Shown one piece after another: positions 8,337-29,549 of a DNA stretch of 30,698 nt; position 1 is the stretch's first letter; every line of letters starts with the position of its first letter. The stretch is from an uncultured Candidatus Saccharibacteria bacterium (lineage in GTDB: Bacteria; Patescibacteriota; Minisyncoccia; UBA6257; JAKLIH01). Location: positions 1-30,698 of the forward strand of contig CAZFNU010000001.1 of assembly GCA_964520445.1 (NCBI GenBank). The letters are read 5' to 3'. The translations under genes were made by a program, and so were the position numbers. A model generated the notes under the pieces. The model did no database searches, was not told where the DNA came from, and worked only from the letters and a program-made list of their open reading frames with translations.

Positions 8337-8445
8337 TCAGGGATAATTAAAACCCCATTATCCTTAAACATTAAATTAAAAGTTTAAGGAAGGTCGGCTT
8401 ATGGATCGCATAAATAAACAAAAACAAATAAGTTTAAAATTTAAA

Positions 8446-10434
8446 ATGATGAATAAGAAATTCTTAACTCTATTCGTTGCTGCTACTTTCGTAGTATCAT
8501 CTTTTGCACCTTTTGCAAAAGCTGCAACAATAGACGAGCAAATTGCTGCTTTACTAGCACAAATTGCTGCCTTGCAAGGCCAAGTCGCAACATCAACAGG
8601 TACAGCAACAGGCACAACCTGCTTCTCAAATAATTTGAGCTATGGTATGACCCATGCTGATGTTAAGTTATTACAAGAAAAATTAGGTGTTTCCAACACT
8701 GGCTATTTTGGTCCTTTGACCTTAGCTGCTGTTAAAACATATCAAGCAAACAATGCTATCTCTCCAGTTGCTGGTTACGTAGGTCCTTTGACCCGCGCTT
8801 CCTTAAATGCTAAATATTGCACTACATCTACATCTACATCAACCGTTCCAGGTTGTGCTTCTGGTGCAACATATAGCGCAACAACTGGCGCTCTTTGTAC
8901 TACAGCTACATCAACCGTTCCAGGTTGTGCTGCTGGTGCATTATTCAGTGCTACAACAGGTGCAAGCTGTACAACAGGTACAACTTCAGCTAGTGGTACT
9001 GCAACAGAAGGTACATTAGTAAATACAACTTCTGCAACTTTCGTTGAGACTTCTTTAAAGAAAGGAGACGTCAACAAAGCTATCTTAGCTACAACAGTTG
9101 AAGCTAGAAATTCCGACATTACTCTTAAAAGAGCTGATGTTGAATTAGCCGCTACTTCAATCCAACCATGAAAGACATTCTCATCTTTTGGTTTGTATGC
9201 TAACGGAGTTTTAGTTAAAGAAATTTCAGCCGCAAAAGAGAACTTTATTGAAACCACATTCGTAACAAAATACGTTTTGAGATTCGATAATATCTCTATA
9301 GTTGTTGCTAAAGGACAAAAAGTTGATTTAGTAGTTAAAACAACCGTTTTAGCAAATCCAGAAAATACAGCTATTACAACTTTCAAGTTCTTAGCTAGCG
9401 CTATCCGTGGAGTTGATGGAGCAGGTATTGATCAATACACCTCTACAGAAATTACCAATACAATCTCTGGTGATGCCGTAGCCGCTTCTTCTACAGGTAC
9501 ATTAGTATGATCTCTTAATACTGCATCTCCAAAAACAGGTTTTGTTACTGGTAGTGCAACCGTTGTTTCTTCAGACAAGACATTAGCAATTTATGATATC
9601 AAAGCTGAAAACAGAGACGTTACTATCAAAACATTACTTGTTACCATGACTGATGCCGATACAATTGTTAGCGCTGTTAAATTATATGATGGTGCTACAT
9701 TGTTAGCTAGCGTTGCTGGTGCAAATGGTGATGTTACCTTTGATAATTTAGCTATTCTAATTGCTAAAGATACAACCAAAACATTAACTGTTAAGGTTGA
9801 TTTGAAGCCATTAGCTGCTGAGGGTAAGTTAATAGCTGCTGTAGTTACTGGTAGTGCTGCTAAAGTTTCTGCCTTTGACTCAACAGATGCTATTTTAGGC
9901 GCAAAATCATGTGGTGGAGGAGAATGTATTACAGGTACAGCTACAGGTAAAACATTAACAGCTTACACAAAAGCTCCATTGTTAACCTTTGTATCCTCAT
10001 CATTCACTAAGACAGTACAAGCTGGTCAAGCTGACCAAGGTGATGCTATAATCGTATTCGATGTCACCGCCGTTGGTGGAGATATCTTCATCAATAAAGC
10101 TGCTACCGCACTTGGTACTATCACAGTTGATGACGGAGTAGCCGCTACAGATACCTTTGCTGGTGGTCTAGGTACTTATACCTTTACATCTACAGCTGAG
10201 GCTGCTTCTGCAGACGTATATGTTGTTAGATCTGGTCAAACAGCTAGATTTACAATTTCAGGTCATGTAATTAATAAAGCTACAACAGGCTATATGCACA
10301 TGGCTATGGATAAGTTAATCTGAGGTACCGCTGTTGGAACCCCAACAACCTATAACTTATTAGGTATTTCAGCCACAGTTAATTATGATTTATCTAACTT
10401 TATAACAACAGACATTTCCTTAACACACGTCTAG
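8446..10434 (+). CDS. Secreted surface/S-layer-like protein with peptidoglycan-binding domain (662 aa, table 4)
   Basis: Signal peptide, QIAALLAQIAALQ helix, PG_binding_1-like DVKLLQEKL..GYFGPLTLAAVKTYQ..GYVGPLTRASLN, Cys repeats, then Ala/Thr-rich beta domains. TGA at 9169, 9508, 10321; TAG 10432. Confidence 0.88.
8836..8973 (+). repeat. Intragenic tandem repeat, 69-nt period (STVPGCxxGAxxSATTGAxC x2)
   Basis: acatcaaccgttccaggttgtgct recurs 69 nt apart; each unit has a Cys pair. Confidence 0.8.
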
Positions 10435-17991: not shown

Positions 17992-18366
17992 TTAAAATCC
18001 AGAATGGTATTTAATATATTCCTTTATTCTTCCCATGTTTTCAATAGTTTGTTCACTTTTAAAATACAATTCAATAAATTCCACGGTATTGTTTTTCTCA
18101 GCAAAGGCATAAATAATCCTAATACCACTATGTGCCCCCTTATTTTTTAAGGCCTTGCAGGCAAATTTTTTAACTACAAAAAAGCAAATACCTTCACAAG
18201 GGAAGCCAGATATTTTAAAAATACCATTATTATCAATTTTATTGATATGAAAATTCTCTATAGCTTGTCTTTTAGCCACTTCTAAATCAGCTTCCAGGGT
18301 TCGGAATTTTTTTGAAAGTTGTTTTAGGTCTTTTAAAAAGCCGTCTGCATATAGATAGTTAATCAT
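17992..18366 (-). CDS. RelE/HigB-like toxin (124 aa)
   Basis: Likely start is ATG 18366, overlapping the antitoxin stop. F.KDLKQL.KKFRTLEADL..VKKFACKALKNKGAHSGIRIIYAF..EFIELYFK is a RelE-superfamily-like pattern. Confidence 0.7.
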   Translation of the reverse strand: MINYLYADGFLKDLKQLSKKFRTLEADLEVAKRQAIENFHINKIDNNGIFKISGFPCEGICFFVVKKFACKALKNKGAHSGIRIIYAFAEKNNTVEFIELYFKSEQTIENMGRIKEYIKYHSGF

Positions 18367-19144
18367 TGTTTTTATCCTGCTTATATATTCGTACCGATGT
18401 ATTACTATCCCTGTAAAATACTCCTTCATAATCTAATTGTTCACTCTGTTTAGCAGAAATCCAAGGAACATCCTTATGGGATAGTTCCGAGAGATCGCTA
18501 GCTGTCATATCTGATAATCTTTGTAGTTCTCAATCAATATGTTCTTGTTCTTGTCCGTTCAAAATACTAAGGTCTATTTTAGTTTCCGGATTAATCAGAT
18601 ATTTAGTTTGGGGGTACTCATAAAAACTACTTTTGATCTTTTCTATTTTTTTATCTTTGATTAGTTCATTTACTACATATTCAAATAAAGGAGGAGTAGG
18701 CCCATGATGGTTTTTAAAATATATTAAACCCATTAACTGCTGTTCATATTTTTCATAGTAATCAAAGTCAATAAAGTATAGTAATTTATATATTACGGTC
18801 ATTCCTACGTTTGGTTTCCCTCCTACCTTTTTTAAGATATAGAGTAAGATTTCTTTGAATTTTTCAACCTTTTCTTCCGGAACGCTAATTCTAGTATCTT
18901 CAGTTTTGTCTTCTTTTTTTTCTTTCTTTATTTCTTTAATACTAACCCCCTCTTTTTCTTGTAACAGATCAACAAGAAAGATATTAAAAAGATTAGCCAA
19001 CTTTTCAGCTTCAGCTATAGTAATATCGTGTTTTCCCATTTCTAATTGAATATATGTAGGCCTGGATATTCCTATCTTTGAGGCCACATATTCTTGGGAT
19101 CAGTTTTGTTTTTTTCTTAATTCTTGAATAAATTTGTAAAGCAT
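18359..19144 (-). CDS. XRE-HTH + Panacea (DUF4065/GepA-like) antitoxin (261 aa, table 4)
   Basis: LRKKQN-W(TGA 19102)-SQEYVASKIGISRPTY HTH; GMTVIYKLLYFIDF..HHGPTP; EHID-W(TGA 18532)-EL..LSELSHKDVPW..LDYEGVFYR; TAA 18359-18361. Confidence 0.9.
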
Positions 19145-26874: not shown

Positions 26875-26946
26875 TCCGCGGTAGTTGAGTGGTACAACGC
26901 CTCCCTGTTAAGGAGGATTTCGCAGGTTCGAGTCCTGCCCGCGGAG
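26875..26946 (+). tRNA. tRNA-Asn(GTT), probable integration site
   Basis: TCCGCGG/CCGCGGA acceptor, CCTCC-ctGTTaa-GGAGG anticodon arm, GCAGG-TTCGAGT-CCTGC T-arm. Confidence 0.95.
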
Positions 26947-28410
26947 CATTGTAGGACAGTTGTTAAATTTGAGCATAGTATTAAACGGTTCTCGTACCGT
27001 GAATACTAGCTCTTTTTCTTTTAACTGAAGGTTCTGAAGTACGAAACTTAGAAGTTGCTTTTTCTCTTCCACTTCAGAACTTTCAAATATTTCTCTAGCT
27101 CTCTTAGCTAAATTAAGCACCAAACTAGCGGTTATATAGAAATTTTCATCTGCATTGGTGTGTCTCGACATTTCTTCTTGTATATCTGCTTGTTTATTTT
27201 TTCATTCTTTTAATTTAGCATTAAATACATCAGGAGGGATCTGTCCGTCAGCTAATAAATTAAAAGCATTGCTTATTCTGGTATCTATTTGGCTATACTC
27301 CTTTTGTAAATTGTCTAAAGCTAATTGATGAAATTTATTTTTAGATTCATTAGTACTCTTTAAGTTTTCTGTTATTTTATTTATTTGATCATCCGTGAAT
27401 TTCATATTATCTAAAACATTATATATCGGAGTCAAAAGATCTTCTTCTTTACAGTACAATACTTTCTTATGAAGTCTCCTATAATTTGTACAATGATAAT
27501 AATGATGACCCTTAGAAGTTTCAGGAGTTATCATACAGCCACATTCTGAACAGGTGATCATTCCTCTGAAAATATATGGTTTGGCTGCATAATGAAAGGG
27601 TTTCTTGTGATAACCTAATGATACGGCTTGGCATCTATTAAACAAATCTTTACTAATTAAGGGCTCATATTTATGAGGGTATAATTGATCTTTAATTTTC
27701 ATAACTCCATAATAAAACGGGTTATTAATTATTTTGTGTATCATACTCTTGGGTAAGGGATTATGTACTTCGGTATTTCCAGTTAGTCCCATAGTTTCCA
27801 TTTCTTTTGTAATATCTAATAATGAATAATTCCCCGTAGCATACATTTCAAATATTCTAATGATATATGATGCTCTTTCTGGATCTGGAATTACATCTTT
27901 ATCTTCGTTTTTTGTGCTTATATAGCCAATAGGGGACTTTCCAATTCATTCTCCATTTTTAATTTTATTTTCATAAGCCCTTTTAACACTATCACTAATA
28001 GAATCTGAATAATATTTAGCCAAGCTTACACCTATAGTAAACCTAAATAAATCAGTAGCAGGTGAGTCTTTAGTTAATATTATATTATCTGAAGGGAAAT
28101 GAAGCTCTATTTTGCCCTCTTTCCTTAATTCTTCCAATGTAACTAATTCTTTTGTAAAATTTCTTATCAATCTATCAATTTTATCGCAACATAAGGAAAG
28201 AGGCTCTTTAGAAGTTTTTAATGTTTCCACAACTTTGCTAAATTCTTCCCGTTCTGTTTTGAAAGCACTTTCATCGAAACTTAACTCTTTTGCAATAACG
28301 AGATTCTTTTCTATGGCATATTTTCTTAATCTTAATACTTGAGCTGGCAAAGAATTTCCCGCTTCTTTTTGTTCTTCAGTTGAAACTCTTGCCAATAGTA
28401 TAGCTTTCAT
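26908..28410 (-). CDS. Large serine recombinase (resolvase + recombinase + Zn-ribbon; 500 aa, table 4)
   Basis: MKAILLARVSTEEQ..SLPAQ catalytic Ser motif; KIDRLIRN; NGE-W(TGA 27948)-IGKSPIGY; NNPFYYG; CSECGC..YYHC Zn ribbon; second TGA 27204; ends LRGQDSNLRNPP* antisense to tRNA-Asn. Confidence 0.93.
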
Positions 28411-28436
28411 ATTTTTAATTTAGTATTTTAATTAAA

Positions 28437-28554
28437 AGGACAGCCCTGCTGTTGAATAGAGACACCTGGTCCAAAAAGAATCAGACATCGCTAAACAGGA
28501 CTGCCCTTTTAATAGGGCGATGCCAATTATTCTTGAACCAATCTCTATTCAACA
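28437..28554 (-). ncRNA. Structured 5' leader of the recombinase (long hairpin plus putative pseudoknot)
   Basis: 13-bp perfect outer stem extended by two further helices. A loop segment can pair over 11 bp with a segment 3' of the hairpin. All non-WC pairs but one are G-U on the minus strand only. Confidence 0.65.
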
Positions 28555-28559
28555 TTTTG

Positions 28560-28588
28560 ATTGTATCATAATTCATTTTATTTATCAA
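28560..28588 (-). promoter_or_regulatory. sigma70 promoter of the recombinase
   Basis: Minus strand TTGATA (28588-28583)-17-TACAAT (28565-28560) with extended TG; predicted +1 near 28553-28554. Confidence 0.7.
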
Positions 28589-28793
28589 GTTTGCCCTGTT
28601 TATTTTTCATATTAGAGTTAAAATACTCATCGTTCGGCTTTTTGTAATACTCTGGATGATTTCGCATATCAATCTGTAGGAGTAAATTAAAAAAATCAAA
28701 GAGCTCATCGCCATTAGCTGAAGATTCTTTTTCTAGTCTAAAGTCAACTATTTTTTCTGTCTCTTGATTTTTATATATTTGTTCTCCTAGCAT
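28578..28793 (-). CDS. Small hypothetical protein upstream of the recombinase (71 aa)
   Basis: Open ORF co-directional with its neighbours; FFNLLLQIDMRNHPEYY resembles small ORFs I associate with CPR recombinase loci (from memory, unverified). Confidence 0.6.
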   Translation of the reverse strand: MLGEQIYKNQETEKIVDFRLEKESSANGDELFDFFNLLLQIDMRNHPEYYKKPNDEYFNSNMKNKQGKLDK

Positions 28794-29219: not shown

Positions 29220-29489
29220 TTTTTTAATTTTAATCTTAATTATAACAAAATCTTTTTCTATTCTTTTATATATCCCTAGATTAGGAAACTCGGATTGAAG
29301 CCCCCCTTACCCCCACAGAGAAAAAATAGGTTTGTTTCTTTTGTTGAAACTAGTTGTGAGAGTAAGGACTTTCCAAGCTTTATATATCCCTGAGATTGAG
29401 GTCTCCTCGTATAAGCTTAGCCTTCTGAACTTTTTTTAATTCGCACTCAGAATCTATCCCCTTACGAATAACTCATAAAATTGAGTTTG

Positions 29490-29549
29490 TAGCGAGATTG
29501 GGACTCGAACCCAATATTATTGATTTGTGTTACCGTTACACCACTCGCT
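29490..29549 (-). ncRNA. tRNA-like element lacking the anticodon arm
   Basis: AGCGAG-TG-GTGT(aacggta)ACAC D-arm, 11-nt A-rich linker, ATTGGG-TTCGAGT-CCCAAT T-arm, CTCGCT-A. Confidence 0.65.

Follow-up and report, generated by a model that had tools for sequence, protein, structure and literature searches.

A predicted two-state 5′ leader RNA in front of a serine integrase gene in a phage-like element of a TGA-recoded lineage

How serine integrases are silenced in the lysogen and activated at infection or induction is poorly known. This question is raised by a locus in a 30,698-nt stretch of DNA from an uncultured Candidatus Saccharibacteria bacterium (contig CAZFNU010000001.1; the whole stretch is called the window below), in which a long inverted repeat directly precedes the gene for a large serine recombinase (LSR). 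A first-pass annotation had described the repeat as a pseudoknot-like structured RNA leader, and had suggested that it is either an undescribed cis-regulatory switch or a recombinase-associated noncoding RNA (ncRNA) controlling integration and excision. We asked whether the region is a leader RNA, which structures it adopts, and what these structures might do.

The leader region and the element that carries it

On the minus strand, positions 28588-28408 hold, in this order, a promoter-like site, the long inverted repeat, and an A/U-rich spacer that runs up to the LSR ATG. The features described in the first-pass annotation were all present at their minus-strand coordinates. The predicted near-consensus promoter, TTGATA-17-TACAAT with an upstream TG, scored 10/12 and ranked first among the promoter-like sites of the 4 kb scanned. 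In 14/14 leaders of the homologous set described below, the two hexamers are conserved and the segment (A/G)UGUUGAAUAG follows after a 4-nt gap, with the promoter always at the same spacing from the hairpin. The start site predicted from this promoter places the hairpin at the extreme 5′ end of the RNA, and the leader would make up the ~145 nt at the 5′ end of the predicted recombinase transcript. The parts of the region are as follows.

26875-26947 (+): tRNA-Asn(GTT), the insertion target
26908-28410 (-): LSR gene, 500 codons, two in-frame TGA; Resolvase, Recombinase and Zn_ribbon_recom domains
28408-28429 (-): A/U-rich spacer, ending in the LSR start codon (28410-28408)
28430-28437 (-): U-rich tract UUUUAAUU, adjoining the G+C-rich stretch of helix B; the point where termination is proposed
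28431-28450 (-): 3′ strand of helix B, AGCAGGGCUGUCCUUUUAAU
28450-28554 (-): conformer A, a 37-bp hairpin and proposed antiterminator, based on folding and covariation
28554-28541/28463-28450 (-): P1 of conformer A
28540-28530/28477-28467 (-): P2 of conformer A
28528-28525/28482-28479 (-): P2b of conformer A
28524-28517/28491-28484 (-): P3 of conformer A
28461-28489 (-): self-hairpin, the 3′ arm of A folded on itself in conformer B, based on constrained folds
28492-28516 (-): apical loop of A, CCYWUUWARAGGRCRRYYCUGUUUA, strongly conserved in the alignments and containing the 5′ strand of helix B
28513-28494 (-): 5′ strand of helix B, AUUAAAAGGGCAGUCCUGUU, plus UAG at 28493-28491
28553-28555 (-): predicted transcription start, A 28555 or G 28553, placed by its distance of 5-7 nt downstream of the -10 hexamer
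28560-28588 (-): predicted sigma-70-type promoter, with -35 TTGATA at 28588-28583, a 17-nt spacer, and TG-extended -10 TACAAT at 28565-28560
28578-28793 (-): small ORF, 71 aa, with conserved core FETEQNLREFFYLLLKIDMRNHPE; it accompanies the leader

The long hairpin was confirmed by RNAfold, which predicted one continuous structure at 28554-28450 (-) with helices of 14, 11, 4, and 8 bp (37 bp in total), and it is conserved in homologs. The minimum free energy of the minus strand was -49 kcal/mol (z = -6.3 against 200 dinucleotide shuffles, none of which folded as well), compared with only -35.5 kcal/mol (z = -3.2) for the plus strand. The loop segment AGGGCAGUCCU (28507-28497) pairs 11/11 with AGGGCUGUCCU (28447-28437), as had been noticed, and the complementarity in fact reaches 20 bp (28513-28494 with 28450-28431). 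Next to the 5′ strand of helix B, UAG at 28493-28491 pairs with CUA at 28459-28457. The 3′ flank segment ends 26 nt before the LSR ATG, and no Shine-Dalgarno motif was present in the window's A/U-rich spacer before this start codon. The competing GCCCU/AGGGC mini-hairpin that had been reported for the loop exists in the window, but it is inconsistently kept among the homologs, as judged by eye from the alignment. The 11-mer motif on its own was within chance in the window, with 2 matches, a number reached by 11/100 shuffles; the significance of the leader therefore comes from conservation and covariation and not from the single sequence. The hairpin was neither repeated nor MITE-like within the window.

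Under the standard code, two TGA codons interrupt the LSR reading frame, which is intact if TGA is a sense codon. The final ~13 codons of the frame lie antisense to tRNA-Asn (26908-26947), and homology between the window and the homologous locus L022 (loci other than the window are given by such handles) spans 28697 to about 26950, where it stops at the 3′ end of this tRNA. The LSR frame runs in antisense into the 3′ half of tRNA-Asn, and its codons for the C-terminal ~13 residues therefore span the junction between element and host. Upstream of the LSR gene lie the 71-codon ORF and a gene resembling a terminase small subunit (phrog_4102, E = 1e-14). From the tRNA overlap and this terminase-like neighbor, the LSR gene lies at one edge of a phage-like element whose insertion site is the 3′ end of tRNA-Asn. 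The antisense overlap between LSR and tRNA recurs in other loci, with tRNA-Asn in L101 and with tRNA(UCA) in L094 and L096. We take the region to encode a 5′ leader RNA, so far undescribed, of the integrase (LSR) gene of a prophage-like element; the earlier view of a structured RNA leader immediately 5′ of a large serine recombinase was borne out.

Homologous leaders and two alternative folds

To collect homologs, 80 loci with homologs of the LSR N-terminal domain were taken from GTDB genomes. With blastn, nhmmer, and a covariance model (R1), the leader was found at only one of these, L022. It was absent from the four closest N-terminal LSR relatives (74-78% identity, standard-code Patescibacteria). 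The leader is therefore not general to the LSR family, and its treatment as a feature of serine recombinases of CPR bacteria did not survive this comparison, in which 79/80 loci, the four closest N-terminal relatives included, lacked it. Further leaders were obtained by a DNA-pattern scan of JGI metagenomes and by look-ups of N-terminal LSR fragments ending at TGA and of homologs of the small upstream ORF. The total was 14 distinct leaders at 26 loci, plus two truncated copies. These 14 leaders represent about six lineages with 61-86% mutual identity. Downstream of every leader, at a distance of 26-28 nt, comes an LSR gene or, in L094, the small ORF plus the LSR gene. All leader-bearing contigs read TGA as a sense codon, and the leader is, going by the contigs found, confined to the TGA-recoded lineage. 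Pattern scans of IMG/VR returned chance matches only, as judged by reading them or with R1, and no leader match was found in GenBank phages. The comparison with Rfam agreed with the idea of an undescribed RNA: at the gathering threshold, Rfam 15 matched only tRNAs in the window, and a permissive scan of 28300-28700 gave only sub-threshold hairpins of miRNA or snoRNA type, the best with 24.9 bits against a gathering score of 60.

The small ORF was 58-74 codons long among homologs, and its core FETEQNLREFFYLLLKIDMRNHPE was nearly invariant. Its product had no Pfam or PHROG match, and its AlphaFold model consisted of a single confident helix (mean pLDDT 65). The usual place of the ORF is directly upstream of the promoter; in L094, it is found between leader and LSR. 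This last locus (L094 5861-7875) comprises the leader, a 58-codon small ORF, and a 563-codon LSR of another type, so that the leader heads a two-gene operon. The leader, at 74-86% nucleotide identity, thus precedes two LSR types that are only 25% identical. Since the leader is common to two such divergent types, leader and small protein appear tied to each other and not to one recombinase, and the small protein is a candidate regulator.

Base pairing was counted in a covariance-model alignment of the 14 sequences, which was fitted to structure A and contains only ~6 independent lineages. In hairpin A, 93.3% of the cells were paired and 15/31 pairs showed changes on both sides. In helix B, 320/320 cells were paired; 8/20 positions vary, and pairing was always kept. 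For either structure, 0/500 shuffles reached the observed paired percentage and covariation score, and sliding the partners by 1-3 columns reduced pairing to 34-47% in A; with slid partners, helix B gave 41-59%. Double-sided changes in helix B were found at 60:119 (G-C to A-U, in L107) and 48:131 (U.G / A-U); these are the only two in its main helix, and one is confined to a single lineage. In L107, helix B pairs changed from G-C to A-U, from U.G to C-G, and from C-G to U.G, and in L100, from A-U to G.U and from U.G to U-A. Sequence was nearly invariant in the apical loop, the 3′ flank, and the outermost 10 bp of the hairpin, whereas the inner helices varied freely yet remained paired. This is exemplified by P2, which reads UGGUUCAAGAA/UUCUUUUUGGACCA in the window, CCAGCAA/UUGCUGG in L022, ACUCGGAA/UUCCGAGU in L094, UUACGAGAAC/GUUCUCGUAA in L086, and AUCCUAAA/UUUGGGAU in L107. 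The alignment based on the covariance model has P2 of the L086 group out of register, and the support for P2 there therefore comes from single-sequence folds. MAFFT with RNAalifold alone recovered only fold B, because the variable stems of A were misaligned. The self-hairpin at 28461-28489 showed some compensatory changes in RNAalifold, with weaker support than for A or helix B.

The wobble pairs of the window had been noted to work only on the mRNA strand. This was true of the whole family, with 32 G.U against 2 A.C in A and 51 against 0 in helix B. The sense strand folded better than the antisense strand in 14/14 leaders, by a mean of 8.4 kcal/mol. Both the G.U excess and the better sense fold argue that the structure belongs to the sense-strand RNA and not to duplex DNA or an antisense transcript. 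The conservation and covariation called for in the first-pass annotation were thus found for both helices, and folds A and B are, on this comparative evidence, both conserved and under selection.

The same data gave a different picture of how the two helices relate to each other. If hairpin A and the loop:flank helix existed together, they would form the static pseudoknot of the first-pass annotation; covariation backs both helices, and their nucleotides are almost non-overlapping. The geometry argues strongly against it. P1 ends, and the 3′ strand of helix B begins, at the same nucleotide, 28450, so that the linker after the base of the hairpin is 0-3 nt, and from there the strand would need to reach its partner atop a 37-bp hairpin of roughly 100 Å. 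On the other side, only 3 nt join P3 to the 5′ strand of helix B, too few to cross the groove of a 20-bp helix. An H-type pseudoknot has coexisting helices and loops long enough to permit this, and linkers of 0-3 nt and 3 nt do not allow it. With these linkers, A and B cannot coexist, and folding likewise gave the two states as alternatives of near-equal energy. On this geometric argument from the sequence, the leader is a two-state switch rather than a pseudoknot, which we hold to be extremely improbable.

In fold B, the 3′ arm of A folds on itself as a separate hairpin, and the 5′ arm remains free. The energy gap between the folds was at most 7.4 kcal/mol across the 14 leaders (totals of -38 to -49), with B favored in 6/14 sequences and A in 8/14. 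The barrier for refolding along a direct path was estimated at 29-45 kcal/mol, and A was the minimum-free-energy structure of the growing chain until about nucleotide 112. Near-equal energies, a high barrier, and the earlier formation of A mean that the outcome would be set during transcription or by a factor. A and B share only 4 nt and their exclusion is steric; it is an unusual architecture, in which the helices exclude each other by geometry and not by shared bases.

Possible functions of the leader

The leader thus contains two exclusive conserved folds in a 5′ position between a predicted promoter and an ORF, as attenuators do, and the hallmarks of the cis-regulatory switch that had been suggested are present. 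The leader most probably controls the amount of recombinase produced. It may be a factor-controlled attenuator of LSR expression, with B as terminator and A as antiterminator; we find this plausible and prefer it tentatively. Helix B consists of a 13-bp G+C-rich lower stem followed by UUUUAAKU (UUUUAA[U/G]U), which is invariant in 14/14 leaders. In 2/3 variable pairs of the A/U part, the 5′ strand alone changes (A to G) and the Us are kept. The window contains 25 intrinsic-terminator-like sites (9.1±2.8 expected), with 10-13-bp stems and U tracts, and the U tract of B resembles terminators of the same genome. It is the stem with its invariant U tract, the retained Us, and the enrichment of such sites that lead us to read B as a terminator. 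According to the model, A would form first during transcription and, once formed, would not convert to B, so that read-through into the recombinase gene would be the default. Given this order and the very high A-to-B barrier, B would need a factor. A trans-acting factor could hold the invariant 5′ strand of A (UGUUGAAUAG...) as it is transcribed and so permit B to form; transcription would then stop about 20 nt before the start codon, and the integrase would stay silent in the lysogen. The most obvious candidate for this factor is the small protein that is encoded beside the leader and conserved with it, but this is a guess.

Parts of the evidence do not fit this model well. As a terminator, B is atypical, with a 20-bp closing helix around ~45 nt and only 4 consecutive Us, and a consensus terminator scanner (loop ≤8 nt) cannot score a helix that encloses ~45 nt. 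Steric exclusion with almost no common nucleotides is atypical for attenuators and counts against the model, and the fixed distance of 26-28 nt from B to AUG fits translational control equally well. Two other candidate elements of attenuation were rejected. The ACAGC/GCUGU mini-hairpin is too weak for a terminator and is broken in L083 and L094. A leader peptide is not conserved: the ORF at the hairpin AUG has 5, 15, 44, or 47 codons depending on the member, it starts with GUG in L089, and the conserved loop falls in different frames in the window and L022. In a separate observation, a sequence that matches a promoter well, TTGAAT-17-TACAAT, occurs within the 5′ arm of the hairpin in L022 (2860-2894) and at the equivalent positions of L085, L092, L100, L104, and L105. 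By eye, this match is limited to the L022 lineage and absent from the window and the other lineages; transcripts starting there would lack the 5′ arm and would fold straight into conformer B.

The main rival to the attenuator is control of translation or mRNA stability, which fits the distance to the start codon and the 5′ hairpin about as well. Here, the same conformers would act after transcription and set the half-life of the mRNA or its ribosome loading: A would be a 5′ protective hairpin and/or an RNase III substrate, and B would expose a 44-nt single-stranded 5′ arm and put a rigid helix 26-28 nt from the start codon. This distance is held although the spacer sequence varies, the A/U-rich spacer has no Shine-Dalgarno motif, fold A pairs the RNA from about nucleotide 2, and both folds hold the >20 bp of near-continuous duplex that RNase III requires. 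However, control after transcription leaves the invariant U tract with its varying pairing partners unexplained, helix B ends >20 nt from the AUG, at the edge of the ribosome footprint, and the choice of fold would require the same factor as the attenuator. We consider such control rather unlikely. The conserved blocks of the leader could also act as DNA, as repressor operators, a cruciform, or a recombination site. That the loop, the flank, and the outermost 10 bp of P1 are nearly invariant beside freely varying inner stems suggests sequence-specific recognition, one block overlaps the predicted +1, and there are candidate operators, namely the quasi-palindrome AGGRCWGYCCT, which occurs twice, and the inverted repeat TGTTGAATAG/CTATTCAACA. 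Against this stands compensation through one-strand G.U intermediates (83 G.U to 2 A.C over A and B). The quasi-palindromic motif was found only in the leader and nowhere else in the 6-13 kb of elements available, which does not fit a dispersed operator. Nor does the leader resemble an LSR attachment site, which has ~40-50 bp with imperfect inverted half-sites on either side of a central dinucleotide, and sits at the element boundary: the inverted repeats of the leader are 45-85 bp apart and span 75-105 bp, and the junction with the host is at the opposite end of the LSR gene, at its 3′ end and tRNA-Asn. A role of these blocks as DNA is very improbable.

The other suggestion of the first-pass annotation, an ncRNA controlling integration or excision, found no support. 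A stand-alone RNA of ~125-130 nt ending at the U tract might act in trans together with either the small protein or the recombinase, e.g., in directionality control or as a cofactor, with the recombinase made from read-through alone. The leader does have its own conserved promoter (strong, predicted) and a terminator-like 3′ end, and the module of leader and small ORF keeps its 74-86% nucleotide identity beside the two dissimilar LSR types. A guide like a bridge RNA would, however, be expected to vary with its target. The same loop and flank occur at tRNA-Asn (window and L101), tRNA(UCA) (L094 and L096), and a non-tRNA site (L022/L106); thus the single-stranded parts are invariant across insertion sites, and the variable parts are buried in stems. 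The longest k-mers shared by a leader with its own junction were no longer than those shared with foreign junctions, and no cognate junction complementarity was found; a guide role was rejected on these grounds. To our knowledge, no LSR uses RNA, and we found no paper describing such a case in the open-access literature. An RNA acting in trans is accordingly quite unlikely in our judgment, and we give very little credence to its most specific form, in which the discrete promoter-to-U-tract RNA (~125-130 nt) and the small protein would take part directly in the integration/excision decision, e.g., by binding the LSR or a directionality factor. If this specific form were true, it would make this the first serine-recombinase system with an RNA component.

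The proposed attenuator can be compared with several known systems. In TRAP and PyrR attenuation, a protein on the 5′ strand of the default antiterminator lets the downstream terminator form. The proposed logic of the leader resembles that of Bacillus subtilis trp/TRAP and pyr/PyrR, with a default antiterminator whose 5′ strand is bound by a protein that frees the terminator, but the leader contains no (G/U)AG repeat arrays or PyrR binding loop, and its binding protein is only a candidate. Expression of a phage integrase or early gene is also controlled through a long RNA hairpin in the retroregulation of lambda int (sib) and in the RNase III processing of the N leader; unlike the leader described here, sib is downstream of int and depends on the integration state, whereas here a 5′ leader keeps its context on integration. 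The bridge (seek) RNAs of IS110/IS1111 are likewise structured RNAs immediately 5′ of a mobile-element recombinase gene, but they serve DEDD recombinases and have variable loops complementary to target and donor; here the recombinase is of the serine type, and the exposed sequences are invariant across targets without cognate complementarity.

The closest described logic, by analogy, appears to be that of the zipper-type attenuator cATT of plasmid pLS20 and its relatives, although its topology differs. That attenuator has near-isoenergetic folds with the antiterminator as default, and its most-conserved 5′ segment has been suggested as the binding site of a factor (Gonzalez-Alvarez et al., NAR 2026, PMC13401043). 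Zipper-type antiterminators have a central long hairpin that is extended by sequences otherwise found in a weak upstream stem-loop and in the terminator; the cATT antiterminator zips up and consumes the 5′ half of the terminator hairpin, so that nucleotides are shared (PMC13401043). Like cATT, the leader opens a mobile-element operon, has a long imperfect hairpin as the proposed antiterminator and default, has folds of similar free energy, and carries a 5′-proximal conserved segment. Unlike in cATT, it is the apical loop of the proposed antiterminator, and not its base, that contains the terminator's 5′ strand in unpaired form, and exclusion is steric. With only 4 nt common to A and B, the leader is not of the zipper type, and it differs further in the host phylum, in the downstream gene (a serine recombinase and not conAn1), and in showing no sequence similarity. 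We would class it as a kind of alternative-structure leader or attenuator with an unusual arrangement, absent from Rfam and from the open-access literature searched, in both of which we found no RNA leader on a serine integrase gene. If the attenuator model is correct, phage-like elements of an uncultured, TGA-recoded lineage that has barely been studied would use this leader to control a serine integrase at the RNA level. Exclusion by geometry would be of interest for RNA folding and for synthetic switches placed before integrase-based genetic circuits; unless the leader proves to act in trans, its practical value is modest.

Codon reassignment and other features of the window

Reading through TGA increased the total ORF length of the window from 7,351 to 10,949 codons. 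The usual assumption for recoded Patescibacteria is code 25, in which TGA encodes Gly. At the first in-frame TGA of the LSR gene (codon 155, 27946-27948, -), standard-code homologs have a conserved Trp in the alignment (GEW[IPL]G). This points to code 4, in which TGA is read as Trp, rather than to code 25. In L094 (7797-7874, -) and L096 (3105-3182, -), related elements have inserted at a tRNA whose anticodon, UCA, would read UGA. ARAGORN labels this tRNA as tRNA-SeC; its 5′ half seems to resemble bacterial tRNA-Trp.

Several other features of the window were observed. Within the phage-like element and upstream of the terminase-like gene, a 60-nt tRNA-like sequence at 29490-29549 (-) has acceptor, D, and T arms without an anticodon arm; it scored 28.5 bits with the Rfam tRNA model, against a gathering score of 29, and was not called by ARAGORN. 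Between this sequence and the terminase-like gene, two non-coding copies of AATCT(C)AGGGATATATAAA(A)G, identified by eye, lie ~115 nt apart at 29263-29282 and 29378-29397 (-). A gene pair at 17992-19144 (-), in which a protein with HTH and SocA/Panacea domains (18359-19144) overlaps a 145-codon ORF (17992-18429), looks like a toxin-antitoxin system. Finally, a 677-codon ORF resembling a surface protein (8401-10434) contains a 72-nt tandem duplication with 81% identity at 8828-8971 (+).
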